Shown piece after piece: positions 4,706 to 25,172 of a DNA stretch of 64,000 nucleotides. Origin of the DNA: Spirochaetia bacterium (GTDB taxonomy: Bacteria > Spirochaetota > Spirochaetia > SZUA-6 > Bin103); NCBI GenBank assembly GCA_965203905.1, contig CBDBDQ010000005.1:7712001-7776000 (forward strand), given 5' to 3'. The first letter of the stretch is position 1. Every line of letters begins with the position of its first letter. The notes beneath the pieces were generated by a model. The model was not told the origin of the DNA. It searched no databases and worked only from the letters and a program-made list of their open reading frames with translations. A program made the position numbers and the translations under genes.

Positions 4706-5307
4706 GGGCGGAGATCTACGTCGAGGGCGGTGGACCGCCTGACAGGCTCACCAACATTCGATGCCGCGAGGGGTTCCGCAAGCTGCTTGCCAAGTGCGGC
4801 CTGGACGACAGCAGGTTCCAAGTGACCGCCTGTGGGGGACGCGGAGATGCTCGGAACGACTTCCGGGACGCCCATGCGGATGCCGGAGACCAATACTATG
4901 TCGCGCTTCTGATCGACAGCGAGTCTCCTGTGGCGAACATCGAAGAGACGTGGAATCACCTCACCGAGGAGCATAACTGGCAACGCCCTCCCGATGCCCG
5001 GGATGACCAAGTGCTCTTCATGACCACGTGCATGGAAACCTGGATCGCAGCGGATCGGTCGGCCTTGTGCGCGCACTTCGGTCAGTGCCTTCTGGTTAGC
5101 GAACTTCCCGACCTCGACGGTCTGGAGGAGCTGAGACGCGGCACCGTGAAGGATCGGCTGCGGCACGCCACCCGGAGCTGTCCGGTCCCGTACGGCAAGG
5201 GGCCGAACTCGTTCGAAGTGCTGAGCAGACTCGATCCGACAGTCCTGGAAGAACGCCTGCCGAGCTTCCGCCGGGCGCGCCGAATCCTGACCGACAAGCT
5301 GGGATAG
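4702..5307 (+). CDS. DUF4276-family protein (TOPRIM-like)
   Basis: IYVEGGG, ACGGRG, LLIDSE and METWIAAD motifs. GTGA overlap with the ATPase. Confidence 0.8.
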   Translation: MRAEIYVEGGGPPDRLTNIRCREGFRKLLAKCGLDDSRFQVTACGGRGDARNDFRDAHADAGDQYYVALLIDSESPVANIEETWNHLTEEHNWQRPPDARDDQVLFMTTCMETWIAADRSALCAHFGQCLLVSELPDLDGLEELRRGTVKDRLRHATRSCPVPYGKGPNSFEVLSRLDPTVLEERLPSFRRARRILTDKLG

Positions 5308-10696: not shown

Positions 10697-10931
10697 TTGA
10701 TCCGGAGCGTATCCGACCCGATCTGGTCGATCAAGTCCGCCAGGGCGTGGCGCCTCGCACAGGGCGCGCGGCCCAACCGCCCAACCTCTTGCATGCCTCG
10801 AGCAAACGGAGTAGTTGTGTGCTATCCAGTCGTGACCATCAAGACCAACGGAACTCAGCGGCGCGCCCGCGACATCAGCACAATGGTGATACCTGCGATC
10901 CGGCAAAAGGGCCCATTGGCCGATTCGGAAC

Positions 10932-10983
10932 GTGTCCCAAGGCCCCTTCGACACGGCAAATGAGATCGTCAGTAGGGATAGGC
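10932..10983 (+). repeat. 52-bp repeat, copy 2
   Basis: 49/52 identical to 6953-7004. Abuts the TA promoter region. Confidence 0.9.
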
Positions 10984-11014
10984 GTGTAAGCACACATACG
11001 CTTATGATGGATGT

Positions 11015-11239
11015 ATGAGTACAACTCGATGGTCGCTGGTGGTCTCCGAAGCAACTGACCGCGCCCTGCGTACCTTCCTTGCGAGTCGGGGACTGAAGAA
11101 AGGGCATCTCTCGCAGTTTGTTGAGGACGCCGTGAGAGAAAAGCTGTTCGATCTGACCGTCGCAGAAGTCAAAGAGCGAAACGCGGGACAAACCGATGCT
11201 GTCATGCAGGCCGTCGAGGAGGCTCTCGAGCGAGCCTGA
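11015..11239 (+). CDS. Ribbon-helix-helix antitoxin-like protein
   Basis: 74 aa, RWSLVVSEATDRALRTFLA..LSQFVEDAV. Upstream palindrome TAAGC-N8-GCTTA overlaps a TATGAT box. Precedes a PIN gene. Confidence 0.8.
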   Translation: MSTTRWSLVVSEATDRALRTFLASRGLKKGHLSQFVEDAVREKLFDLTVAEVKERNAGQTDAVMQAVEEALERA

Positions 11240-11242
11240 GGC

Positions 11243-11652
11243 GTGCGTGTTGTGCTCGACACCGGAATCCTCGTTGCCGCTCTGATCACACGGACACACC
11301 CCCAGACCAACTGTACCAGCTGTGGCGCAAGCGACGGTTCACGCTGATCACGTCCGAGCCGCAGTTAAGCGAGTTCCGGCGCGTCACTCGTTACCCGAAG
11401 CTGCGTCGGTTTCTGAAGGCTCACGAAGCGGGGACCCTCCTGCGCGGGGTGCGTGCGCGAGCTGTTGTTGTCCCAGGGCTGCCACAGATCGATCTTGTCG
11501 ACGACCCCGACGACAATCTCGTGCTTGCCACCGCTCTCGCCGGCGAGGCTGACTATCTGGTCACCGGAGATCGGCGTCACCTACTGCACCTGAAGAAGGT
11601 GCAGCACACGAGGATCTTGACGGCACGTGAGCTCACAGAGTTGCTCAACTGA
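11243..11652 (+). CDS. PIN-domain toxin (PIN_3-like), frameshifted near 11295
   Basis: VRVVLDTGILVAALI ... DPDDNLVLATALAGEADYLVTGD. Confidence 0.85.
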
Positions 11653-11778
11653 CCGTTCCCGACGAACGGGACCGGCCGATGGCCATACCAAGTTCTCGAT
11701 CCCATCCCTGGTGTTGCGTTGCGCGCCCCGAGCCGAAGTTCGTTGCAGGATAGATGGCACGGAGTGTGGGCGGTGGGT

Positions 11779-11826
11779 GTTCCGTTCCGAGCGTGTCCCT
11801 GGAGCGGAACGCGGGAACGGCGGAAC
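11779..11826. repeat. Converging GTTCC/GGAAC pentamer cluster (ori/iteron-like)
   Basis: GTTCCGTTCCG followed by CGGAAC, GGGAAC and CGGAAC, just downstream of the AAA_25 gene. Confidence 0.55.
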
Positions 11827-11860
11827 GGTGGGCGGATGAGAGCGAGTAGGCCGTTGGGAG

Positions 11861-12796
11861 TCAGGCCGGCAGGTGCCAGCCGGCGGGACCGCGGACGGCG
11901 AGACCGCGTTGCTGGAGAGATTGGAGGGCGAGACCGAGACGAGCGTTGTTGACGCGCAGGCGTTGGCGGAGGGCGGTCCTGGAGAGCGGCTGGCCGGCGG
12001 TGCGAAGAGCGGCGCGCACGGCCTCGGTGAGCGGGGGCGGCGGAGCGGCGGCACCGTCGACGATCAGCGAGAGGGGCTGGTGGGCGCCGCCTGAGAGGCG
12101 CAGCAGGAGGGGATCGGGAGCGGGAGCGGCGCGGTGTTCGACGGTGAGTTGGAGCCGGTCGTCGGCCCGCCGCACGAGGTAGCATGCGGAGTCGGTCCAG
12201 GCATGCAGATCGGAGGAGCCGCGCAGGGACTGGCCGAGATTGCGGCGCGAACGCTTGGCCATGTGGTGGACGAGGACGACCGCGAGCTGATGGCGGCGAT
12301 TGATGGCGCGCAGAAAGCCGAGCAGGGAAGAAATGTCTGAAGCGCTGTTTTCGTCGAGGGAATGAAGGCGGACCAGGGGGTCCAGCAACAGCAGCGCCGG
12401 GCGGATGCGTTGCACGGTGTGGTCGAGAGCGAGCCGGTCGCGCTCGGTGTCGAGGCGCAGCCGGTCGGCCGTGACGACGTGCAGGTCGAGGCGGGACAGG
12501 TCGAGGCCGCGGTGGCGGCACAGGTGGGCGACGCGGTCGCGGACGCGCGGCAGAGCATCCTCGGCAAGATAGACCAGGGCGGGTCCGGTGGCGTCGACCG
12601 GGAACCGCCCGAGGGCGGGAGTGCCGGACGCGACCGAGACGGCGAGATCAAGACCGAGCCATGACTTGCCAACCTTGGGGCTGCCGCCAATCACGCCGAC
12701 AGCGGCGGTGGTCCAGAGGTCGCGCACCAGCCACTGGGGAGTGTCTGGTTGGGGATCGATGGCATGGACCGGAACGGTGGGCAGGGGACCGGTCAT
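11861..12796 (-). CDS. AAA_25 / RepA-like RecA-family ATPase (putative helicase) with C-terminal HTH-like tail
   Basis: PQWLV, GGSPKVGKS, YLAED, LLLLDPL, LVHH and LRGSSDL motifs. ATGA overlap with the upstream gene. Confidence 0.88.
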   Translation of the reverse strand: MTGPLPTVPVHAIDPQPDTPQWLVRDLWTTAAVGVIGGSPKVGKSWLGLDLAVSVASGTPALGRFPVDATGPALVYLAEDALPRVRDRVAHLCRHRGLDLSRLDLHVVTADRLRLDTERDRLALDHTVQRIRPALLLLDPLVRLHSLDENSASDISSLLGFLRAINRRHQLAVVLVHHMAKRSRRNLGQSLRGSSDLHAWTDSACYLVRRADDRLQLTVEHRAAPAPDPLLLRLSGGAHQPLSLIVDGAAAPPPPLTEAVRAALRTAGQPLSRTALRQRLRVNNARLGLALQSLQQRGLAVRGPAGWHLPA

Positions 12797-13596
12797 GGCC
12801 ACAGCGACTTGCGAGCGGCGATCACGTCGCCGGCGCTGACGGTGGAGTGGGACGACTTGGCGGCGCGTTGCAGGGCGGCCAGGGCGAGGCGGTCGATGGC
12901 GCGCAGGTTGCCGCGGCTCATTTCGAAGATGGTTTGCTGAGCGTCGCCGTCGAAGGGATTGGTGCGCGCGCCGGCGAGGGTGCAGCGATGTTCGAGGTAG
13001 GCGCAGGTTTCGTCACGGGACAGGAGGCGCAACTCGGCGTAATGCGCGAGGCGGTGCGCGATGGCGGCTTGCTCGGGACGCCGCAGGAGCTGTCTGAGAG
13101 CAGGCTGGCCGGCGAGCACGAGGGACACGACGAGGCGACTGTCCATTTCGAAGTTCGTGAGGACGCGCAACATGGCCAACGATTCGGGGCGCAGGTCATG
13201 TGCTTCGTCGAGCAGGATAACCGGGCGCATGCCGTCGCTGGCGGTGTGATCGAAAGCGCCCTGCAACTTGCGCACGAGGGCGGGATAGATGCCGGTGGGA
13301 GAGAGGCCGCAGGCGACGGCGATCTCCTTGCACAGGTCACGCTTGGAGAGGCCGGTGACCTTGACGTAGTGGACGCTGAAGCGCACCTCCGGGAGAGCGG
13401 CGACGAGCATGCGCAAGGCGACGGTCTTGCCGGTGCCGGCGGGAGCGATGAGTGCGGCGCTCATGCGCTCCTGGACGGCCTCGGTGAGAGCGGCGGCGAC
13501 CTGGGCCTGAGGTTCGAGCGGGAAGCACTCGCGCACCTGCAACTCGCGGGTAAAGGGGGTCTTGCGAAAGCCCAGTGTGCTGAGGTCGTGGCTCAT
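12793..13596 (-). CDS. ExeA-like AAA+ ATPase (transposition helper, MuB/TnsC-like role)
   Basis: GFRKTPF, APAGTGKT, ILLDEAH, LTNFEMDS, LAGQP and SRGNLRAID motifs. Confidence 0.9.
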   Translation of the reverse strand: MSHDLSTLGFRKTPFTRELQVRECFPLEPQAQVAAALTEAVQERMSAALIAPAGTGKTVALRMLVAALPEVRFSVHYVKVTGLSKRDLCKEIAVACGLSPTGIYPALVRKLQGAFDHTASDGMRPVILLDEAHDLRPESLAMLRVLTNFEMDSRLVVSLVLAGQPALRQLLRRPEQAAIAHRLAHYAELRLLSRDETCAYLEHRCTLAGARTNPFDGDAQQTIFEMSRGNLRAIDRLALAALQRAAKSSHSTVSAGDVIAARKSLWP

Positions 13597-14990
13597 GGCT
13601 GCTGCTCCTGGTCGTGGCGGTCGTCGTGCGGGTCGCTATAGCCGCCGTCGGGATCGACCAGCGGGCGGGTGTCGTTGGCGTAGGCGATGCCGGCCGCGGT
13701 GGCGGGGAGTTCCTCGCCGTCGTCGTCGTCAGTCGGTTGCGGCGCGCTGCCGGAGCCGCGCGGTGAGGTCGCGTTGGCATGCGGGTCCACCTCGGCCAGT
13801 TCGATCATGCGGCCCTGGTGCAGCACCCACAGGCGCCCGTCGAGCACGTGGCGCGCCACCTCGACCCAACTGCGGGCGCTGCGGAGCGGTGCTTCCCACA
13901 ACCGACCGCCGGCCTTGATGACGTGATCGTTGGAGACCTTGTGCAGGGCGCGCACCACGAAGCGGCGGTACAGGTCGGCGTCGTCGGTCGGGAAGCGCAG
14001 CTCGCGTCCCTGCTCCCAGCGCTGGCGCGGGGTGATCTCCTTGCCCAGAGTCTCGTGCGGGGTGTCGTTGTAGCGGTTCAGGAAGTGGCGCAGGCGCAGT
14101 GTGAGTGCCTGGCAGGCGGGGTCCACGTCGGCGGCGCCGTCGAGGGCACGCAGCGCCTAGTCGTAAGCGGTGCGGTGGAAGCGCTCGACGGCGCCGTGGC
14201 CCTCGGGATACCTGCTGGCGCCGTGGATCAGCAAGGCGCCCAGGCCGCCCTGGACCACCGCCAGGGTGTCCTTGGAGATGAAGCCCGGTCCCTTGTCCAG
14301 GTAGTACAGGTCCGCGCTACCGTGCCGCATGACCGCTTCGTGGAGGCCGCGCAGGAACAGTTCGCTGGACTCCGCGGTGCCCACCACCACCTCGAGGCCG
14401 TAGCGGGTGGCATCGTCGAGGAAGAACAGCGCGACCCGGCGCAGCCGCGCCGCGCCGGCGCGGAAGTGCTTGCCGTCGGCGAGCACGCACTGCATACGCT
14501 CGGCGTAGCGCCAGCGCCGGGTGTCGCCGTCACGCTTGTGCGGTCGCACGCGCGTCGGCAAACCCATCCGCCGGCAGGCGCGCCACACCGTGGTGCGATC
14601 GATCTTCAGGTCGACCGGGATGATGCCGCGCTCGCGCGCCCGGCGCACCATCTCCGGTACCGAGGCGCGCGCATCACGCTGCTTCTCGGTGCGCACAAAG
14701 GTGACCAGCTTGGAGCTCAGCGCCAGGGAAGTCGCGATGCGGGTGCGCGGCTGCGGCTCCAGGGCAGCCAGGCCGCCGGCGGCCCAGGCAGCACGCCAGC
14801 GTTGCAAGGTGCGTACGCTGACCCGCAGCGGGCGACCGTTCAGGTCCACGCGGTCGCGACCGGCAACGTGCCGTACCGCGGCTCCCGCGGGGTATCCGCG
14901 CAACACCAGGGCCTCCACCTCGGCGACTGCCAGGGAGCGCACCAGCGCGGTCGCCGAGGCCGGTAACGGGGGACGCGTCGAGTCATTCAT
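13593..14990 (-). pseudogene. DDE transposase/integrase (Mu/IS481/TnsB-like) with one in-frame TAG
   Basis: HTH SVRTLQRW; catalytic ADGKH, LDKGPGF and GAVERFH; then TAG at 14157-14159 and the same frame continues (YNDTPH..TPRQRW). Confidence 0.88.
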
Positions 14991-15844
14991 GCGCCTACCG
15001 TAGCGCCGCCCGAGGCTGCTCGAACGGGCGCTTTCGTGGCCGGCGGCGCCCGTCCCCGAGGGCTGCCGGCCATCTCCTTCTCCCGCGCTTCGGAACGACC
15101 CGTCGCGGTAACGATCCAGCTCTTGCCGGCCTGCTCCCAGCGCGCCACCAGCCGCGGGCGCGGTGGCCCCCACAGATCGCTGACCGCACCCGCCGCTCCC
15201 ATGCGGTCCCCCAGCGTGGCGCTCACCGCCAGCGCCACCAGCACCGCCACGATCGCGGCTCCGCGGCTCTGCCAACTGCGCTCCCAACTGCGTGCTCCCG
15301 CGAGCACCGTCATGGTCGCCACTCCCAGCCGCGTCGCGATCTGCTCTCGCTCCCGCTCCTCCAGTTCCGGGCTCACCCCGGTCAGCCGTCCGGCCATCTC
15401 CAACCGCCGCTCCTGGGTACGCCGGCATGGCGTACTCGACGACCGCCACCAGTGCAACTCCGATGGCCACCCCTTCTCCTGCTCCGCATCCTGCGCTGCC
15501 CTGAACAGCGTCGCCTGCCACTGCGGTTGGCTGCTGTCAGCGTCGAGCAACAGCTCGCCGTCTGTGCTGTACCGCACCACAGCCACCCGTCCGTACGGGT
15601 AATGTCCCGGCGGATACAGCGTGTAGCGCCGCCCCCCATGCTCCCGGCACCCCACCACCGCTATCGGGTAGCACGGTCCGCTCTTGCGCTCTCGGTAATG
15701 ATCGACGAAGATGGCACACGTCTGCTCCCCCGTGGCGTAGACGCATCGTGTCGGCAGCACGGCGTGTAAGGCTCCGTCCTTATCCGTCTCGTAGCTCGTC
15801 GTCGCGTACGGGAGCGCGTGTGCCTCGGTTCCACCCTCGGACAC
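14987..15844 (-). CDS. Hypothetical Cys/His-containing protein, first gene of the transposon operon
   Basis: 285 aa; TGA overlaps the transposase ATG. PTRC..TC and CREH..YTLYPPG motifs. Lies inside the TIRs. Confidence 0.7.
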   Translation of the reverse strand: MSEGGTEAHALPYATTSYETDKDGALHAVLPTRCVYATGEQTCAIFVDHYRERKSGPCYPIAVVGCREHGGRRYTLYPPGHYPYGRVAVVRYSTDGELLLDADSSQPQWQATLFRAAQDAEQEKGWPSELHWWRSSSTPCRRTQERRLEMAGRLTGVSPELEEREREQIATRLGVATMTVLAGARSWERSWQSRGAAIVAVLVALAVSATLGDRMGAAGAVSDLWGPPRPRLVARWEQAGKSWIVTATGRSEAREKEMAGSPRGRAPPATKAPVRAASGGATVGA

Positions 15845-15949
15845 TCGCTGCCTCTCGTGTGCCTCGACTCGCGGTCACCCGCCCGCCGAGGCTGCAAAAA
15901 AGTGAAGCCCGCAGCATTCACCTGCTGCGGGCTCCTTAGAAACACATAG

Positions 15950-17335
15950 TCAGGCGGCGTGAGGTACGAGATCGAAGCCGAGAGAACGGGCTTGGTTGCG
16001 CAGGTTGCGCTCACGGCGTTTGCGATCCTGGCAGTGCTGTTGCGAGAGCAGGTCGTCGTCGTAGAGGACATGGTGCGTGACGAGGTGGTAGATGATGCGA
16101 GCCATCTTGTGGGCGGTGGCGGTGATTGCCTGTGGAGTGCCGAGGCGGGCACGCTTGCGGCGAAAGTGATCTCCGAGCGAGGAGTGGCTCCGATACAGCG
16201 TTTGGGTTGCGATGCGGAGCGCCTGAGCGGCGCGATTGGTGCCGGGTCCGGTCTTCGAACTGATGATCTTGCCGCCGGTGATCTTGTTGTGGGGGCAGAG
16301 ATTCAACCAGGAAGCAAAGTGCGCGGCGTCGGGAAAGCGTGACAGATCGGCGCCGATTTCGGTAAACAAGGTAAGGGCAGTGCTCTCGCCGATGCCGGGA
16401 ATAAGGGTCAGGTCGGTACCGAACAGGCGCGTGAGGTGGCGGCTCAGCACGAACCGTTCAGACGTACTCGGGGAGCTGGGAGCCTCACCTTCGCCGGGAA
16501 CCGCGCTGCGGTCGGCGCCGGAGGGAACGTCAGGCGGCACATTCGGGTCCGTCTCCAGGGTGCCGATCATGGTCTTGATCTGCTGATCGCAGGTATCGAT
16601 GAGCTGCTGGTAGTGCGCATAGGTCAGCCGCGCTTGCTGCAGGGTAAACAGATGCTCGGGACGCCAGTCACCTTGCAGTGCCTTGATCAACGTCTCGCGG
16701 CTGGCTCTGATCCCGCGATGGGCCAGCGCGGCCAATCGTGCTGGAGCCCGTTCCCCGCCCAGGATGGCGTCGGTGATGGCCATGCCGGTCACCCCGGTCA
16801 GATCAGAGATCGCATGGTGCAAATGGATGTTCATCTGATCGTAGGATTTCTGCATATGCAGCACGCTCCGCGATGCCGCCTTCACCAGGGTGTCGCGATG
16901 GCGCAGCAGCGTGCGCAGCGCGCACACCTCGTCGGGCGGGCGGAAGGAGCCGCTCAGCAGTCCCACCGAATGTAGATGACGCAGCCATTCGCAGTCGGCT
17001 ACGTCGCTCTTGCGACCGGGCACCGAGCGCACATGACGGGCGTTGACCAGTACCACGTCGAAGCCACGAGCTTCCAGGATCTGGAGCACGGGTATCCAGT
17101 AGACGCCGGTAGACTCCATAGCGACCGTGGTTACCCGGCACTCGCTGAGCCAGTCGGCCAACGCGTGCAGGTCGCTGGTGAACGTGGGGAAATTACGGAT
17201 CGGCACCGCGGCGCGATCTTCGCGTACTGCGGCGTACACCGCGGTGGCGCCTATATCCACACCTGCGGCGTCGGGATGGACCTGGTTCGGCTGCGCCGGG
17301 CGTTTGCCGTTGCGTCGCCTCTTACGTCGTGCCAT
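15950..17335 (-). CDS. IS110 DEDD recombinase/transposase
   Basis: GVDIG, AMESTGVYW, GRKSDVAD, IPGIG and FASWLNLCP..KITGG motifs. Confidence 0.97.
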   Translation of the reverse strand: MARRKRRRNGKRPAQPNQVHPDAAGVDIGATAVYAAVREDRAAVPIRNFPTFTSDLHALADWLSECRVTTVAMESTGVYWIPVLQILEARGFDVVLVNARHVRSVPGRKSDVADCEWLRHLHSVGLLSGSFRPPDEVCALRTLLRHRDTLVKAASRSVLHMQKSYDQMNIHLHHAISDLTGVTGMAITDAILGGERAPARLAALAHRGIRASRETLIKALQGDWRPEHLFTLQQARLTYAHYQQLIDTCDQQIKTMIGTLETDPNVPPDVPSGADRSAVPGEGEAPSSPSTSERFVLSRHLTRLFGTDLTLIPGIGESTALTLFTEIGADLSRFPDAAHFASWLNLCPHNKITGGKIISSKTGPGTNRAAQALRIATQTLYRSHSSLGDHFRRKRARLGTPQAITATAHKMARIIYHLVTHHVLYDDDLLSQQHCQDRKRRERNLRNQARSLGFDLVPHAA

Positions 17336-17344
17336 GAAAAGCCT

Positions 17345-17600
17345 CCACTATGCACCAAGTGCAGCGGCCGAGGCGTGAACAAGAGGCATTCTCCTTACCG
17401 GGATGGCCGTCGCCGACAGTGCCGGTGCCGACCTCACCAATGACTACGCCACCTGCCTCGGGACCAAGCTTCACAACGGGTTCGCCACAGCGGGCGGTCA
17501 CACCAATGTTCGCGCGGCCTACTTTCGCGCCCCACTCGGTGAAATATCGCCCCCAGTATATCTCGCTCCCGTTTCTTCCATGATCACTCCGGACCGTCAG
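17345..17600 (-). ncRNA. Putative IS110 bridge/seek RNA in the upstream non-coding end
   Basis: Contains TGTGAAG (matches target flank) and TAAGGAG (matches donor end), each within a repeated CATTGGTG...CCCG frame. RNA boundaries are approximate. Confidence 0.7.
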
Positions 17601-17910
17601 GCCCGGTAGGATAGCTTCACACTTTACGCCCCCGTCGCTTCTCCGCCTACGCCATCGTCACCGCAACCGGTACTCCCTCACCCCGCCCTTGGGCGCGCAA
17701 CGCAATACCTGGCCTTACACCAGGCGGCGACTTGGCCCAACTCGAACGCCCCGTGCATCGGCTTCGCTGACCGGCCAGGTCACGCCCATCCTGCGCACGC
17801 CGCTCAGAAAGTGAGCCATTTGCCGCTTAGAAATTGACCCACCCCCGGCAGGCGAACCCTCCGGGTGATAGTTTGGTGTTGCTGAACATCAAACTGAACC
17901 GGAGAGAAGG

Positions 17911-19374
17911 ATGCTGGGGATGGATCGCGTATACGTTATCAGACACAAGTGGCACCAAGAAGGGCTGTCGATCCGCCAGATAGCCCGTGACCTGGAGATA
18001 AGCCGGAACACGGTGCGCAAGTACATCGACGATGCCGGCGGGCCGCGGCAGCCGGCGCGGTCGAAGCGGGCGCGGCCGGTGCTGGAGAAGGTACACGAGC
18101 GGATCGACGAGATCCTGGAGGAGTGGAGTACGCGCACCACCGACAAGCAGCGCGTCACCGGGACGCTGGTGCATCGCCAACTCCGCGAGGAGGGGTACGA
18201 GGTGGGCAGCACGACGGTGCGCTCCTACTTGGCGGAGCGGCGCCGGAAGCGGCAGGAAGTGTTTGTGCCGCTGATCTGGCGTCCCGGCGACGCGGCGCAG
18301 GTGGACTTCTTCGAGGTCACCGTCGAGGTCGCGGGGGAGCGGCAGAAGGCGTGGTTGTTCGTGGTGCACCTGATGTACTCGGGGCGCGACTTCGCGTGGC
18401 TGTACGAGCGCTGCAACCAGATCGCGTTTCTGGACGGCCATGTGCGCGCCTTCGAGCACTTCGGCGGGGTGTCGGTGCGCTGCATCTACGACAATCTCAA
18501 GGCGGCGGTGAAACGGAGGCTGGGGGTGGAACGGGAACTGAGCGCTCGGTTCCTGGCGTTGTGCTCGCACTACCTGTTCGAGCCGTGCTTCGCGCGCCCA
18601 GGCGAGGGGCATGACAAGGGCGGGGTGGAAGCGCGCGGCAAGAACGTGCGCCTGCAGCACCTGACGCCGATTCCCGGTGGCCCATCGTTGGATGCGATCG
18701 CGACCGAACTGCTGGAGCACCTGGACGCGGCCTGCGACACGCGCGCTGACCAGGACGGTCGCACCGTGGCACAGCGTTTCAGCGAGGAGCGCCCCTTGTT
18801 GCGCCCGCTGCCGCAGCGATCATTCGAGGCCCGCCAGGTCGAGCCGGTGGCGGTGAGCCGCCAGGCGCTGGTGCGGGTGGACGGCGCGCGCTACTCGGTG
18901 CCCAGTCACTGGAGCGGCAGCCAGGCGACCGCCTACGTGGGGGTGGCGGACATCATCCTGGAGTGGCGCCAGGAACGGATCACGGTCGCCAAGCAGCCGC
19001 GCGGCACGCGCGCGGTCCAGTATCGGCACTATCTGGACGAGTTGGCGAAGAAACCGCAGGCGGTGCGCCAGGTGGCACCCGAGCTGATGGAGGAGCTTGG
19101 TACTCCCTACGTGCGGCTGTGGAAGCTGCTGTCTTCCCGCTACGGCGAGCTGGATGCCGCGCGGGTCGTCGCCAAGCTGGTCGGCGCCATCGTCGACCAT
19201 GGCGAGCAACGGATCAGTGAGATCCTCGAGCAGATACTCGCCGCGCCACCGCCCGTGGCGACCGAGGACAACCCGCCGCCGGCCACGGTGCCGGTGCCGG
19301 TCGCCCTGCAGCGCTATCAGGTGGAGTCGACTCCTGCATCGGCCTACAACGTCCTGATGGTGAGGGAGGACTGA
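17911..19374 (+). CDS. istA: IS21 transposase IstA
   Basis: [30 protein letters not shown] and KGGVE motifs. Confidence 0.97.
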
Positions 19375-19375
19375 T

Positions 19376-20152
19376 ATGAGCGAACTGAACGATGCGCTGA
19401 TCGAAGAGCACTCCAAGACTCTCAAGCTGCCGGCGCTGCGACGTGAGTACGGTCAGCTCGCCCGCCAGGCGCGCGCCGAATCCTGGTCCTACGAGGAATA
19501 CCTGCGCGAGTTGTTGGACGGCGAGGTCCGCGCCCGCGAAGCCAGCACCACAGCACGCCGGCTGCGCGAAGCACGGTTCCCGGACCTCAAGACCCTCGGC
19601 CAGATCGACTGGACTGCCATGGAGGGCGTCTCCAAGCAGCAGATCCTCGAATTGGCAACCTGCCAGTTCGTCGAACAGCCCGCGGACGTGGTCATCGCCG
19701 GGCCGATCGGCACGGGCAAATCGCATCTCGCGATCGCCCTCGGCGTCGAAGCCGCCCAGCGGCGCTTCCGGGTGCTGTTCGTGAAAGCGGCCGACCTGGT
19801 CCGACAACTCCTGGAAGCCAGGGATGACCGCGAACTCGGTCGTCTCCAGCTCCGGTTGCGCCGAGTGAACCTGTTGATTATCGACGAGTTGGGGTTTGTC
19901 CCCTTTGACCGCGCCGGCGGCGAGCTGTTGTTCAACCTCGTCGCCGATCGCTACGAACGACGCTCGACCATCGTCACCACCAATCTCGCCTTCGGCGAGT
20001 GGGTCAGCGTGTTCGCCGATGAGAAGCTCACCACCGCGCTGTTGGACCGGCTCGGTCACCACGCACACATCATCACCACCAAGGGCCTCTCCTACCGCAC
20101 CGCTGCCCGGCGCCGCGGCGCCGCCAGCGAGGCCGAAGAGCCCGACAACTGA
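19376..20152 (+). CDS. istB: IS21 helper ATPase IstB
   Basis: [22 protein letters not shown] and ALLDRL motifs. Confidence 0.97.
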
Positions 20153-20456
20153 TCCGTGGGGGCGGTGTGATGCCCGTGCGCACTGCATATCTGCATATCG
20201 ACGGCCGCCGCCAAGCGAGGTCGCTCTCAGCGGCCCTCCAAGGCCCCGCCGCGAGCCAAGGTGGAACTCCTACACCCCCGTGTTCTGCATAATCATGCAA
20301 CCAAAAACGAACTTATCCACATTTCCACAGGCACTCTCGACCCCTCCCCCAGACCCCCTCCCCATTTACCGCCGCCTCCGCTATAGTTCCTCTGCACTGC
20401 CGGGGTGGGTCAATTCCCGACCGGCATTCTGGCTCAATTCTCGAGCGGCGCGCGCA

Positions 20457-20617
20457 CATCCACAGCCGGCGCTCGTCGACCTGGTCGGCCGCGTTCCGGG
20501 CGCGCCTCCGGAACTGCCGCCGGCGCATGCACACCCGTGGCGCCACGGGTGGAGGGCCCGGTGCATCCGGCGTGACACCCCGGGAGGTGCCGGTCGGCCG
20601 CACATCCATGGGTCGGC
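20457..20617. repeat. Palindrome-rich dispersed repeat, copy A (interrupted by IS21; left part 17766-17791)
   Basis: Inverted homology to 25737-25969. Confidence 0.8.
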
Positions 20618-20770
20618 ACGGCGGTGGCGAAGCCAAAGGAGGCCGGCACCGGGGCGATCGAGCGGGAAGACATCTGGGGCCGATCCGTCGCACCTCGCCT
20701 TGCTGACCTGGCTGGACGGCCGCCCGGGCGCAGGCGCGTGCACACCTGCGCTGCCGCAGGCGGGCCTTCC

Positions 20771-21701
20771 TTAAACCGACCCGGCGGCTCCGGCACCGAG
20801 GCGACCACCGCCCCTCAACCTCGGATCAAGCAGGTCCCGCAGGGCGTCGCCGAACATGTTTAGACTGTAAACGGTAATAGTCAGGCAAAGACCCGGCCAG
20901 AGAGCCAGGTGTGGCGCCTGCTCCATGTATTTACGCCCTTCCCGGCTGAGCAGAGCTCCCCACTCAGCAATCTGGATTGGCAGACCGAATCCGAGGAAGC
21001 TCAGAGAAGCTATACTCAGGATTACGCCTCCGATGTTGATGCTGAATATGATGATTACGACAGGAATAATATTGGGCACGACATGTCGCACAAATATTCT
21101 CCATCTTGAGCTACCAATCGCCTCCGCCGCCTGAACATACACGTTCTCCTTTATGCCAATAACGGCGCCTCTGACTATTCTTGAGCCGCCGATGCCTCCG
21201 GCTATCCCCAGGACCAGTATCATCTGTGGCACACCCCGCCCCACCAGCGACATTATGGTTAACAACAGGAGCAGTCCCGGGAAACACATCCAGGCATCGA
21301 CCAATCTCTGCACAGCCAGGTCCGATTTACCACCAAGGAATCCTGAAGTGCCACCTATCAGGGTAGCGACGACAACATTAACACCGGTCGCGGCCAGACC
21401 GACAAGTAACGAAATACGAGCACCGTAGATAATGCGGCTCAAGAAGTCTCGCCCCAGCTGGTCGGTACCCAGCAGATACTGGGCTGATGAGCCCCTGCAG
21501 CATGTCGTACAGGTGCATTTCATCATATGGATAAGGAGCCAGAACATCGGCAAAGATAGCGACAAAAATCAATATCAATACAATAATCCCGCAGGCAGTA
21601 CCCAGTGGCTTCTCCTTCCACATCCTGGTAAAGAAATCAGCCACCGCGTTGCGTCTCTTTGGCTCGCTTACTGTTGATGGTATCCTTGTGATATCACTCA
21701 T
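20771..21701 (-). CDS. DppC/OppC permease, frameshift near 21490
   Basis: Close paralog of 605-1573. Has one extra G in CAGGGGCTC versus CAGGGCTC. Confidence 0.9.
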
Positions 21702-21719
21702 AATCCCGATTTTCCTCCT

Positions 21720-22718
21720 TTATCTATAACCGACCCTGGGGTCTATATAGGGATAAATCAGGTCGATCATTAGATTGGCCCCCATAACCACGACGGCGAA
21801 AAAGAGATTTACCCCGGAGACCACCGGGTAGTCTCTGCCTTCGAGGGCAACCACCATGAGACGACCCAACCCCGGAAGGTTGAATATGTTCTCCATGATG
21901 ACCGAACCACCTATCAGGATCGGCAACTGCAGGCCTATCAGGGTAACTATCGGGATGAGGGCATTTTTGACGGCGTGTCTGATTATGATTACCCGCTCCT
22001 TGAGGCCCTTAGACCAGGCGGTCCTGATATAGTCCTGCCTTAAGACCTCCAGCATCATGGTGCGCGTCAGCCGCATTGTTATCGCAGCCATGCCCGTCCC
22101 CAGAATCACGCTGGGAATGATGAACACCCCCAGATTCCCCAGCGGGTCTTCCGTGAAAGGAATCGGTTCCATTGGTGGCGTCCAGCCCCACCAGAGTGCC
22201 GGGTAGAGCATGACCATCAGTGCCAGCCAGAAGTTGGGAGTTGCCATGCCGATGATGGCGATGGAGCGCCCCAGGTAGTCGGCGGCGGTATCCTGGCGAA
22301 TCGCCGAGTAGATGCCGACTGGCAGGGCTATCAGCAGCCCGATTACGATTGCCATGAAACCAAGCTCAATGGTGATCGGCAATCTACCGAATATACTGTC
22401 CTCTACCGCCTCCTGGCGGTGATGCAGTGACCGGCCAAGGGTGCCCTGGAGGAGACCGTTGTAGCGGGACTCACCGGTAACCCAGTCAGGGGTCGGCAAC
22501 ACTCCTATCCAGCGTCCATACTGCACGTGCACAGGCACGTCCAATCCCAGCATATGCTCCAGCGCTTCACGGTCTACCTCACGACCCGTGACATCCTTAC
22601 CCAACATTGCGTCTATTGTATCGCCGGGGATGAAGCGGACGGAGAGAAAGACCAGGGTGCTCAATATAAACAAGGTGGGGACTATCAGCAATAACCGCCT
22701 GATAATATAGGCTCTCAT
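21720..22718 (-). CDS. DppB/OppB permease
   Basis: YIIRRLL, QYGRW and LRQDYIRTAWSKGL motifs. Confidence 0.95.
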   Translation of the reverse strand: MRAYIIRRLLLIVPTLFILSTLVFLSVRFIPGDTIDAMLGKDVTGREVDREALEHMLGLDVPVHVQYGRWIGVLPTPDWVTGESRYNGLLQGTLGRSLHHRQEAVEDSIFGRLPITIELGFMAIVIGLLIALPVGIYSAIRQDTAADYLGRSIAIIGMATPNFWLALMVMLYPALWWGWTPPMEPIPFTEDPLGNLGVFIIPSVILGTGMAAITMRLTRTMMLEVLRQDYIRTAWSKGLKERVIIIRHAVKNALIPIVTLIGLQLPILIGGSVIMENIFNLPGLGRLMVVALEGRDYPVVSGVNLFFAVVVMGANLMIDLIYPYIDPRVGYR

Positions 22719-22733
22719 GTCACACTACTCCTT

Positions 22734-22784
22734 GTCATTGCGGCGAAGAACCTGCCCCGGAATGGATCCGGGGCCGCAATCCAG
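22734..22784 (+). repeat. REP-like palindromic element
   Basis: GTCATTGCGGC...GCCGCAATCCAG with a nested CCCGG/CCGGG hairpin. Confidence 0.55.
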
Positions 22785-22815
22785 AGTAATTTCAAATGGT
22801 GCGTTTTCTGTATTC

Positions 22816-22863
22816 GGAACCGGGAGGCTGTCGCCTGCAGGCGCGCCTCCCGGTTCCCTTTTT
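22816..22863. terminator. Strong intergenic hairpin between SBP and dppB
   Basis: 13-bp stem GGAACCGGGAGGC/GCCTCCCGGTTCC. The T-run is on the + strand only, so for the minus-strand operon it is more likely a stability hairpin. Confidence 0.55.
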
Positions 22864-22879
22864 CCCCTGAGATCAGCCG

Positions 22880-24662
22880 CTAATGACCCATTGCTTCCTT
22901 CAGCTCACTATCAATCCAGAGGAAGGTAAAGAGGGTATGCACTTCAAAGCCGCCCAAGCGATTTTCTCCGTTATAGCCTATGAGCCAGGGCTGGGCCAAA
23001 TGAAACACTGGACTCTTTGGACCCCATATCTGGAAGTGGTTCTCTATCGCGTACATATCTGCCTCTGCAATCAGCCTCTGCTGCTCCTCAATGGTAGGAG
23101 CGGCTAGGGCGGCTTCAATGATGGCGTCCAACTCAGGCCACTGGTGTCCGCCGCGGTTCCACTGTGCGTTCGAGTGATACCGGCCTACAAACATGGCAGG
23201 GTCATAAGCGGCGCCCGCAATGGCACTGATCATGCCTTCATAATTACGCGAGAATAGCCTCTCGTGATATTCGGGGTTGTCCAGTGCATCAATCTCAACA
23301 TCGACGCCAATCTCAGCCCAGTAGGAGGCAGCTATTTCTGCATATTCTAAGGTTGCCCAAGCCCCGTAAGTCAATGAGGTCTTGAATCTAGTGTCGTCGG
23401 CGCCGCGCGGATATCCAGCCGCATCAAGGAGCTTCTCGGCTGCTTCCGGGTCATACCTGTAGTATTGCTTGACCTCTTCGGGCCACTCTTCAAATGGGAT
23501 GTAATACCCTTTATTCGCTATCCGTCCCATAGGTGTCGCATCTGCCTGACCCTTCCAGAGCGTGGCCGCAATGGTCTCGTTGTCCAGCGCCATCTGCATT
23601 GCGCGGACCACGTTGATGTCGTTAAAGGGCGGCACGCGATGGTTAGGAGCAAAAGAATCACTCGACCGAGACCAAAGCGTGTGCACCGCGATTTCGGGGT
23701 TGGTCCGCTGCAGGCTCATTACCGAGTTCATATCAGTAACCCACTCTTTGAGATCAATCTTGCCTGAGCGTAGTGCTGCCATGGTTGTTGCTTCCTCTGG
23801 AATAATCAGGACCCTGTGCTCGTCGACGTATGGCAAGCGGTTCTGCGGGTATTTTGGGTCGAAGCCCCAGTAGTCAGGATTCTTGGTATAGGTCCTAGAG
23901 CTGCCCAACACCCACTCAGTCAGCATAAAGGGCCCGGTGCCGACCAGGTTCCTCCAGTCCATATCGACGCCATGTTGCTCGATTACCTCGGGGGGCATTA
24001 TGTAAGCAAAGTCGTCGAGGAGGATAAGCCCCAGCGCAGGGAGGTATGGCTTCGCCAGCTTAATAACAACCGTCGATTTGTCGGTGGCCGTTACCGATTC
24101 CCATGGTATTGCGATGAGTGCGGCGGCGGGACCAAAGGCGCTAGGTCCTGCTTCGGAGAACTTGCCCAGACCCAACATACGGTGAAAGCTGTATTCGACA
24201 TCATCGGCGGTCATCTCCCGACCGTTCATCGGCGCCTTATTATGCCATTGAACGCCCTTGCGGATGTGGAATGTATAGGTGAGGCCGTCCGGGGAAACAT
24301 CCCACTTTTCAGCCAGCCTCCCTGTCACGAAAGACACAGGGAGGAACGATTTTAAAGTCATGTACGTCTCTATCTACTCCCCAGTTGCCGATACCAAGCT
24401 TCTCTACGACGCCCGAGATGGTTAGGGACGAGTACCCGACATAGGGGTCAGCAGGGAAATCCTGAGGACTTGGTACGGCCTTGGTTATTGTCCCGCCATA
24501 CTGTGGCGCCGTTACCATCATGCCGGTGGTCGGGTCGAGCACCATTTCCTTCTCGGCGGCGGACGCCGGCTCCTCCTCGCTGGCAGCGCCGGCCCACAGG
24601 CCGGTTGCGGTCAGGTTGAGGACCAACGCAACCGCGAAGGTCCTTGCAAGAAATATCTTCAT
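22880..24662 (-). CDS. ABC solute-binding protein (family 5), frameshift near 24350
   Basis: Signal peptide, PQYGG, LAEKW..S.DG..YTFHIRKGV, VGTGPF and KNPDYW motifs. Confidence 0.9.
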
Positions 24663-25172
24663 CGTTTCTTCCTTGAATGTTATTTCGAGAGTATTGCATT
24701 GCGGGTTGCCGCTCCGGCTACTCTGACGCCCGCAACGCGGGCGCGCCCGCCAAGGCGGGCCACCGGTCTGAGTCGATTTGTGACGCGCGCAGCGTGTGAC
24801 TCATCCGGGTTCACCCCGGGCTCACGCCGCGCGCGCCCAGGGCTCTTTGAGTATCATTCGAGCCTCCTTCTTCTCTAGATCTACGTCGGGATCTGCGTTA
24901 CAACGCCACGCGTGGCGGTGGTCTGAGCAGCAGTGAGTCTGAATGGCCGCCAACGCAGGCGGTGGGTTTTGCGCGCAGTTAGTAGCAGGCGGGGATCCGG
25001 CACCGTTGCAGTCGACCGGAAGGGTGCGGGCGGTCTTAATGCCGGTTCGGCGATGGACCGAGCCGGCACCACCGATAGCTGCAGCGGTGGTGAAGGCGAC
25101 GGTGTGCGCGGGGGCACGTACGCGGCGATCAGACGGAACGGTTAATTGTTGCTCTAATAAAGAATTGCCCGC

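Follow-up and report, generated by a model that had tools for sequence, protein, structure and literature searches.

We examined a 64,000-nucleotide stretch of the genome of a Spirochaetia bacterium (GenBank assembly GCA_965203905.1, contig CBDBDQ010000005.1, positions 7,712,001 to 7,776,000 of the forward strand; hereafter the window), in which positions 11712-17707 are occupied by a transposon whose four genes all lie on the minus strand. The element is delimited by 17-bp terminal inverted repeats (TIRs) that pair at 16 of 17 positions: TGTTGCGTTGCGCGCCC at the AAA_25-proximal end (11712-11728) and GGGCGCGCAACGCAATA at the orf1-proximal end (17691-17707), the former placed by end comparison and the latter by end comparison and other copies. 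Directly outside them, the target-site duplication (TSD) CCTGG can be read from the window at 11707-11711 and again at 17708-17712. In order of transcription, the genes encode a 285-amino acid protein, orf1 (14987-15844); an rve-type, TnsB/MuA-like DDE transposase (13593-14990); a 267-amino acid ExeA/MuB/TniB-like AAA+ ATPase with an AAA_22 domain (12793-13596); and a 311-amino acid RecA-fold ATPase of the AAA_25 family with a C-terminal winged helix, a RepA-like putative helicase (11861-12796). Every junction between consecutive genes reads ATGA, and the element encodes four translationally coupled proteins. An IS110-family insertion (15934-17613, minus strand) interrupts the transposon, and about 4313 bp remain once it is removed. 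The original prediction, made from the nucleotide letters alone, had described these TIRs, the CCTGG duplication, the 4313-bp length and the three ATGA overlaps, all of which we recovered; its calls of a DDE transposase, an AAA+ protein and an AAA_25 ATPase likewise hold, through matches to TnsB, phrog_296 and RSF1010 RepA, respectively. Taken together with related copies, the feature is a decayed member of a family of autonomous transposons of about 4.3 kb.

The window copy is inactive. An in-frame TAG at 14157-14159, directly after a conserved ERFHRT block, makes the transposase gene a pseudogene from which full-length transposase cannot be produced; an intact copy elsewhere in the genome (L004; L numbers denote loci) has Q at this position. 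The other lesion is the IS110-family element, which was recognized by its Pfam domains and bounded by comparison with uninterrupted copies. This 1.68-kb insert carries a transposase gene (15950-17335) with both family domains (DEDD_Tnp_IS110, PF01548, 75.8 bits; Transposase_20, PF02371, 46.6 bits), and its right boundary falls at 17613 or up to 17616 because of an ambiguous 3-bp GCT. Relatives of it are found elsewhere in the same genome. The insertion lies in a non-coding feature of the family: between the orf1-side end and orf1, a strong hairpin rich in guanine and cytosine (GC) is followed by a run of T residues. Alignment shows that the hairpin stem is preserved by compensatory changes in L029, L033, L034 and L039, and the structure probably serves as a terminator that keeps transcription started outside from entering the element. 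IS110-family elements are known to target palindromic sites; here the insert cuts the stem, leaving most of the terminator-like hairpin at 15896-15933 (minus strand) and the rest of the stem at 17614-17622, and displaces one end of the transposon by 1.68 kb. Given a stop codon in the transposase gene and an insertion within a conserved hairpin, we regard the window copy as a relic. Neither the stop codon nor the position of the IS110 within a hairpin was part of the original prediction.

The two central genes define the transposition core. A profile of the transposase family retrieved ShCAST TnsB as its sole significant match in the Protein Data Bank (PDB; E 1.8e-5), and the transposase matched phrog_310 (transposase, E 1.6e-24) in PHROG, while individual Pfam matches to rve and rve_3 fell under their gathering scores. 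The adjacent ATPase matched Pfam AAA_22 with 77.7 bits (cut-off 27) and phrog_296, a "DNA transposition protein," at E 1e-31. PADLOC returned a TnsC match for the AAA_22 protein (E 1.1e-4) and a weak TnsB match for the transposase; against VchTnsC in the PDB, the AAA_22 protein reached only E 0.8. Judged by sequence similarity, the pair is an rve-type DDE transposase related to MuA, TnsB and TniA beside an ATPase of the MuB/TnsC/TniB kind.

Evidence of mobility comes from the genome itself. Four copies are present in its 8.0 Mb, and the three without IS110 measure 4321, 4321 and 4306 bp and share the ends of the window copy. Two of them (L002 and L003) lie at separate sites and share 99.977% identity over 4321 bp; L004 is 95% identical to these, and the window copy is about 88% identical to each of the three. 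Their flanks read ACGGT/ACGGT, GCGGT/GCGGT and CCGGT/ACGGT, the last matching at four of five positions, and a perfect 5-bp TSD thus borders three of the four copies in this genome. Only a weak preference, NCGGT-like, is seen at the target sites, and the copies do not share a single attachment site. Empty sites, which the original prediction had named as something to look for, were found both within this genome and in public data. The window copy sits within another repeat, whose uninterrupted paralogues L064 and L065 cross the insertion point with one CCTGG and therefore represent the empty site. Public runs X2/X3, which may be a single data set, and X5 supplied assembled contigs in which the flanks of L002 are joined and exactly 4326 bp are absent, corresponding to the 4321-bp element plus 5 bp. 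The element is thus polymorphic in nature and has recently moved in this genome; it is bounded by conserved 17-bp inverted ends and makes 5-bp target duplications. The distribution among relatives is patchy: across 21 related genomes, with 0-10 copies each, a search for the AAA_25 gene at E ≤ 1e-30 was positive in five. These five belong to a single genus and have 2-10 matches per genome, fragments included.

Beyond this genus, the family is widespread. Among 8000 scored candidates, 1507 database relatives of the transposase were found at E ≤ 1e-5; many are 65-70% identical and come from metagenome-assembled genomes (MAGs) labelled as different phyla, on contigs of 4-5 kb. In the databases, proteins of this family go by generic names ("transposase," "AAA family ATPase," "RecA-family ATPase," "hypothetical"). 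Scanning species-representative genomes supplied 37 loci from MAGs. When these were searched with the four proteins (tblastn), orf1 was found in 33 of the 37 and AAA_22 in 31, and the gene order orf1-transposase-AAA_22-AAA_25 was the same wherever the contig was long enough, as the original prediction had anticipated for homologues of its four proteins. MAG contigs that have the same order and ends bear the labels of at least nine phyla. The AAA_25 gene, whose absence from most homologous elements had been named as the outcome that would count against the prediction, follows AAA_22 in 23 of the 26 loci that could be judged, i.e., those with at least 500 bp of sequence beyond AAA_22. It is missing from the other three: L044, which is a deleted copy, and L042 and L045, whose transposases (46% and 39% identical, respectively) make them the most divergent relatives. 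L045 has recognizable ends 3578 bp apart and is a genuine three-gene form. The small open reading frames that lie 3' of AAA_22 in L045 and in L042 are not similar to one another or to the C-terminus of AAA_25, and we treated them as non-genes. That the four-gene family is real and mobile we consider almost certain.

A tree of 28 transposase rows was used to place the AAA_25-bearing and AAA_25-less lineages. L032 was dropped on account of one internal stop, and close duplicates and truncated or broken copies (L017, L018, L021, L025, L030, L037, L040, L041, L044, L046 and L048-L052) were omitted. The two kinds of lineage are intermixed, although support for the deep nodes is weak and long branches come together. 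The intermixing indicates that the AAA_25 module has undergone more than one gain or loss and is an auxiliary component, not an essential one; with its weak deep support, the tree does not settle the order of these putative gains and losses.

The 17-bp ends are conserved across phyla. In an alignment of 16 elements, the window copy included, all AAA_25-side ends begin with TGTT; 15 read TGTTGCGTTGC and L045 reads TGTTACGTTGC, with variation at the GC-rich inner positions. The orf1-side end starts with TA, TC or TG depending on lineage. The TA at the right end of the window copy had been pointed out as an oddity; the observation was accurate, but TA is simply one of the states found on that side. 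Outside this genome, 14 loci have both ends: three carry perfect adjacent 5-bp repeats (L023, L029 and L039), two match at four of five positions, two have repeats displaced by 3-4 nt on the orf1 side, six have none and one lacks flanks. The TIR and 5-bp TSD pattern, which had been proposed on a single copy, therefore recurs in other copies of this genome and in other phyla. Loci without a TSD lie mostly on short metagenome contigs, whose flanks are possibly chimeric, although L016 and L019, on a complete chromosome, also have none. Intramolecular replicative events or inter-copy recombination would produce flanks of the kind seen at these two full-length copies. Two further copies on that same complete chromosome, L017 (~4960-4975) and L025 (~4976-4990), have 3 or 4 bases between the TSD and the orf1-side end (GCTAA+AAA and CATGG+CCGC, respectively); the extra bases could reflect imprecise end processing or a carried-over junction spacer.

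The component that sets this family apart is the AAA_25 protein. It matches Pfam AAA_25 with 117 bits (E 1e-33), and a profile of its family has RSF1010 RepA (PDB: 1g8y) as the sole significant PDB match by sequence (E 1e-11). Foldseek searches with the predicted structure ranked RepA first, followed by DnaB, KaiC, Rad51 and RadA, and the PHROG matches are the helicase parts of phage primase-helicases. Across 19 sequences, Walker A (GGxPKxxKS), Walker B (LLDPL), HH and RGSxDL blocks are invariant, motif names that we take to apply here, with the individual invariant residues being K41, K44, S45, E79, D80, D139, H177, H178, R192, G193 and S194. The last ~55 residues are modelled as a helix-helix-helix-strand-strand winged helix with a predicted local distance difference test score (pLDDT) of 80-93. 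On its core motifs and nearest relatives, the protein appears to be of the RepA/DnaB type (superfamily 4, SF4), with hexamer formation and unwinding as putative properties. The transposon-specific clade that combines AAA_25 with the winged helix is an unannotated protein family.

Several lines of evidence tie the AAA_25 gene to the element that carries it. Its ATGA overlap with AAA_22 couples the two translationally. Over 23 loci, the identities of the AAA_25 protein and of the transposase to the reference rise and fall together (Pearson r = 0.976). Among close copies, the ratio of nonsynonymous to synonymous substitution rates (dN/dS) is 0.10-0.14 for AAA_25, the lowest of the four genes, compared with 0.16-0.36 for the transposase and 0.39-0.45 for orf1. 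The protein probably acts in the life cycle of the element itself. It had no match in PADLOC, and the notion that AAA_25 is mere cargo (a plasmid or phage remnant, or a defence or addiction gene, with no part in transposition or replication) is very improbable: although its absence from related three-gene and two-gene elements and the gain or loss indicated by the intermixed tree would suit a passenger, its purifying selection is the strongest of the four genes, it co-diverges with the transposase, it is ATGA-coupled, and, as described below, it recurs with matching repeats at the corresponding place in a second family, although the transposases of the two are only ~25% identical.

The best sign that AAA_25 belongs to the machinery is non-coding: a candidate partner of this protein lies beside its gene. 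End alignment and a 10-mer search delineated an iteron-like cluster at 11779-11828, between the AAA_25 stop codon and the element end, which on the plus strand consists of two GTTCC, a 17-bp spacer and three GGAAC. Read on the gene strand, it comprises three CGTTCC, the 17-bp spacer and GGAACGGAAC, followed by ACCCACC; it lies directly 3' of the stop codon, 65-115 bp from the element end. What is invariant across phyla is the sequence of the cluster and not just a fold (DNA fold z-score, -3.4). All AAA_25-bearing loci with that end present, L038 excepted, have a single exact copy of the 10-mer GGAACGGAAC in this place, and it is absent from the AAA_25-less L042 and L045. The cluster is a candidate binding and loading site of the AAA_25-winged-helix protein. 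Closer to the terminus, a subterminal GTTGCA..ATGGC block was located by end alignment at 11742-11759; a block of this type (GTTGCA..TGGC) is found ~30-48 bp from each element end and is a candidate second binding site of the transposase. Rfam returned no match at E ≤ 0.1 in positions 11000-21000 of the window.

A second, very distant four-gene family shows the same arrangement. Found in two congeners (L066-L069), it encodes a Cys-rich protein of 225 amino acids with a helix-turn-helix (HTH), a DDE transposase, an AAA_22 ATPase and an AAA_25-winged-helix protein. The element is 4273 bp long, with three 99.3%-identical copies in one genome (one at L066:2228-6500), and its ends read TCAGCCGCGCC... 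and ...CACTCTGA. Compared with the first family, the transposase is ~25% identical, the AAA_22 protein ~29-35% and the AAA_25-winged-helix protein 46%. Directly after the AAA_25 stop codon stand two GTTTCCC, a spacer and three GGAAAC/GGGAAAC, with the ACCCACC tail as in the first family. The layout is therefore the same while the repeat unit changes together with the AAA_25 protein, as would be expected of a cognate binding site. The first protein of this family was not significantly similar to the orf1 profile (hhalign E 0.028, probability 1.8%); that the two share a Cys-rich and HTH make-up is only our reading.

These observations suggest a mechanism that would begin as in known transposons. 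By homology to Mu and Tn7, the transposase would bind the terminal and subterminal GTTGC-type sites, and the AAA_22 ATPase would capture target DNA for strand transfer staggered by 5 bp. Without a TnsA-like nuclease or a resolvase, the strand-transfer product must be replicated or repaired. The AAA_25-winged-helix protein could enter here as a self-loading hexameric helicase that would bind the inverted pentamer iterons 3' of its own gene, ~65-115 bp from the end, and open the DNA there, upon which host primase and polymerase would copy the element. Copying might occur at the strand-transfer fork, in a Mu-style replicative transposition that has AAA_25 as its fork helicase and dispenses with the host restart primosome; alternatively, a copied-out or excised form might be replicated. 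We place the proposal that AAA_25 is a replication helicase loaded at the iterons a little short of an even chance. A broader version, which we put forward somewhat more tentatively, holds that the DDE transposon may also be a minimal replicon, with an origin of inverted pentamer iterons and a cognate, self-loading RepA-type helicase. Such an element would start its replication immediately after Mu-type strand transfer, or on a copied-out form, without the host restart primosome, and two or more transposon families that diverged deeply would have retained the module. The covariation of iteron sequence and winged helix belongs to this reading, which may explain the near-identical elements across many phyla; a lower dependence on the host would fit their presence in contigs labelled with so many different phyla.

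Several points weigh against a replicative role. The AAA_25 model is middling (pLDDT 71; predicted template modelling score, pTM, 0.56), its Foldseek matches have E values of ~1e-5 and template modelling (TM) scores of 0.4-0.5, and they include KaiC, RadA and Rad51, which are RecA-fold ATPases but not replicative helicases. Apart from the AAA_25 protein, the element encodes no primase, polymerase or initiator. L038 has AAA_25 but no exact GGAACGGAAC, and orf1 or the transposase, rather than AAA_25, could be what binds the iterons. In most copies of the first family, the stretch from the iterons to the end is only marginally less GC-rich than the element, and in L029 it is richer; the drop is clear only in the second family, and we do not rely on it as a sign of unwinding. 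Neither a circle junction nor over-replication was seen in assembled contigs, in which rare forms would be invisible. Finally, the TIR-bounded 3578-bp L045, L042, two-gene elements on plasmids and Tn6049 all lack AAA_25. A DDE and AAA_22 core thus works elsewhere without it, and AAA_25 is not needed for the chemistry of transposition. The original prediction of an uncharacterised transposon class that may supply its own helicase is nevertheless supported as far as sequence goes: none of the three outcomes that it had named as refuting was observed, and the family is apparently undescribed and keeps AAA_25. AAA_25 is not universal in the wider DDE and AAA_22 superfamily, and its role as a helicase or in replication is putative.

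The same facts are open to other interpretations, the strongest of which casts the AAA_25-winged-helix protein as a DNA-binding ATPase that steers or regulates transposition, whether as a stand-in of the TniQ/TnsD/TnsE type or as an immunity or copy-number regulator that binds GGAAC. Its gene occupies the operon slot that tniQ holds in the tniA-tniB-tniQ order of Tn5053-type elements, and none of the four proteins has a TniQ or TnsD match in Pfam. The winged helix looks sequence-specific, the repeats stand at one end only, RecA-fold relatives such as KaiC are regulators, and three-gene relatives such as L045 transpose without AAA_25. These points are offset by the fact that the nearest relatives by sequence and fold are replicative helicases and phage primase-helicases, and that the SF4-type motif blocks are entirely conserved. 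A target-site selector would also sit uneasily with the weak NCGGT-like preference and the lack of a single attachment site, and iterons beside a helicase gene resemble an origin module that has been characterised (PMC7581432). On balance, we consider a purely regulatory role unlikely.

Less probable again, and in our view rather improbable, is an episomal phase in which an excised or copied-out circle would replicate from the iteron origin like a plasmid and then reinsert, replication not being coupled to strand transfer; the element would then be a hybrid of transposon and plasmid. RepA is a plasmid helicase and the iterons are origin-like, many relatives lie on contigs near element size (4.2-5 kb), and the 3-4 extra bases at L017 and L025 resemble a spacer carried over from a circle with joined ends. 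Element-size contigs are, however, expected from repeat collapse, and those examined have non-element flanks and no end-to-end junction. Contigs from four runs likewise contained no joint linking the two ends of the element, although contigs cannot reveal rare forms. Systems of the MuA/TnsB type with a MuB-type ATPase are not known to use circles, which also counts against an episome. A helicase loaded at the iterons remains our preferred reading.

The fourth protein, orf1, is conserved but of no known family. Conservation and a structural model indicate a CCCH motif (invariant C34, C43, C66 and H69) and an HTH-like helix, together with a conserved C-terminal RxPPPT motif, and orf1 is a Zn/HTH-like protein. 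Searches of Pfam, NCBIfam, PHROG and PADLOC gave no match. With its AlphaFold 2 model (pLDDT 79), Foldseek found nothing in the PDB at E ≤ 0.001 for the whole chain, the N-terminal Zn/beta part not having been searched alone; a wider fold search reached at best Z 4.8, to helical bundles of the CARD/death-domain kind, which is below a meaningful level, and the ESM Atlas gave no usable match. Its profile, in turn, retrieved 909 cluster representatives of ~250 amino acids at E ≤ 0.001, 372 of them at E ≤ 1e-30, and this family (P0245-P0394) has no Pfam, NCBIfam or PHROG model. We considered whether a hypothetical protein encoded 5' of a transposase on a Rhodococcus plasmid might be orf1 and rejected it because the two are not alike.

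The region around the transposon has received other insertions. A complete IS21-family element (17792-20456) lies just 84 bp away; it encodes IstA (17911-19374) and IstB (19376-20152; IstB_IS21, 245 bits), has a 5-bp duplication, CATCC, at its borders and is missing from L064, the paralogous site. The DNA hit by both insertions (~10926-11711, 17708-17791 and from 20457 onward) is itself repeated, with copies of 97-99% identity elsewhere in the genome (L064 and L065) and matches in congeners, and is probably another mobile element or a duplicated region. Farther on, the GC content of window positions 21001-25000 is 0.51-0.59, compared with ~0.69 elsewhere in the window, which may indicate more foreign DNA.

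In replicative DDE transposons, the passage from transpososome to replication fork is understood mainly for Mu in Escherichia coli, where host factors are needed. If the replicative reading is true, a compact and abundant four-gene element that supplies a helicase, together with a probable site for loading it, would offer a simple, host-independent system for studying this hand-over, and the boundary between transposon and plasmid would be blurred. Two unannotated protein families are defined in any case: orf1, with its 909 cluster representatives and no Pfam model, and the AAA_25-winged-helix clade. A small system of the Mu kind that functions across many phyla is also of possible interest as an insertion tool.

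Among known systems, phage Mu is an instructive comparison. It likewise combines an rve-type DDE transposase with an adjacent AAA+ target-capture ATPase (here phrog_310 and phrog_296), makes a 5-bp target duplication and has ends that start with TG, and neither element has a resolvase or TnsA. In contrast to Mu, the present element is 4.3 kb, is not a phage and has the additional orf1, and no Mu-transposase C-terminal Pfam domain was detected in its transposase of ~460 amino acids. Mu replication relies on the host restart primosome, whereas this element itself carries a RepA-like ATPase and iterons. The Tn7/Tn5053/Tn552 group shares an operon of transposase, AAA+ ATPase and third gene, as well as a 5-bp TSD. 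Searches of the four proteins against Pfam and NCBIfam (E ≤ 1 and 0.1, respectively) found no TniQ, TnsD, TnsA or resolvase, so that the element fails the definition of Tn7/Tn5053; its third position is instead taken by the AAA_25 RecA-fold ATPase, and it has short 17-bp ends and one subterminal repeat rather than multiple 22-bp sites. IS21 and IS481 also have rve-type DDE transposases, and IS21 has an AAA+ helper in addition. The helper ATPase here (P0003) has no IstB_IS21 match, in contrast to the 245 bits scored by the IstB of the neighbouring IS21, which excludes it from that family. IS481 (NF033577) is the best NCBIfam insertion sequence model for the transposase, but the score of 94.8 bits is far below the cut-off of 224 and excludes this family as well; IS481 elements consist of a single gene, and this element has four.

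The two-gene transposition core also resembles that of other small elements. DDE transposase and ExeA-like ATPase pairs on plasmids of actinobacteria and Bacillota have the same two-gene core without AAA_25 and orf1, and the Rhodococcus pKNR transposase is 26% identical to the transposase described here (E 1e-14). Tn6049 of Cupriavidus metallidurans CH34 is a small transposon with a core of DDE transposase and GspA/ExeA-like ATPase (PMC2864759), and is described as 3.5 kb long with 12-bp ends and 4-bp repeats (PMC4739549). Its ATPase is of the same type, its ends and repeat length as described differ, and no AAA_25 is reported for it. The transposase had no tblastn match at E 1e-10 among 72,556 plasmids, and Tn6049 was compared by description only.

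For the helicase module, RSF1010 RepA is the best match of the AAA_25 protein by both sequence and fold, and both are single-domain RecA-fold proteins of ~280-310 amino acids. RepA differs in lacking the C-terminal winged helix, and the identity in structural alignment is just 21-23%. At oriV, RepA is loaded with the aid of a separate initiator, RepC. The staphylococcal cassette element SCCmec, with its CCPol-MP-Cch2 genes, offers a parallel in layout. Cch2 is reported to be a 3'-to-5' helicase whose iteron binding sequence lies just 3' of the cch2 gene, as part of the replication module (PMC7581432); an integrative element with its own helicase and short iterons 3' of the helicase gene matches the arrangement of AAA_25 and GGAAC. 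Cch and Cch2 presumably belong to a helicase family other than RepA/DnaB, and SCC elements differ further in using serine recombinases instead of a DDE transposase, in encoding a primase-polymerase and in measuring tens of kilobases. No described family matched among the NCBIfam insertion sequence models or in the literature searched, the original prediction having allowed that the element might belong to one; nor did this literature, a search that did not extend to ISfinder and TnCentral, contain a DDE transposon with an AAA_25 or RepA-like gene. The comparison as a whole is best read as describing a DDE and AAA+ transposon of the Mu/Tn7/Tn5053 type that acquired a self-loading helicase and an origin-like module, a combination of helicase and iterons that would be new for DDE transposons.

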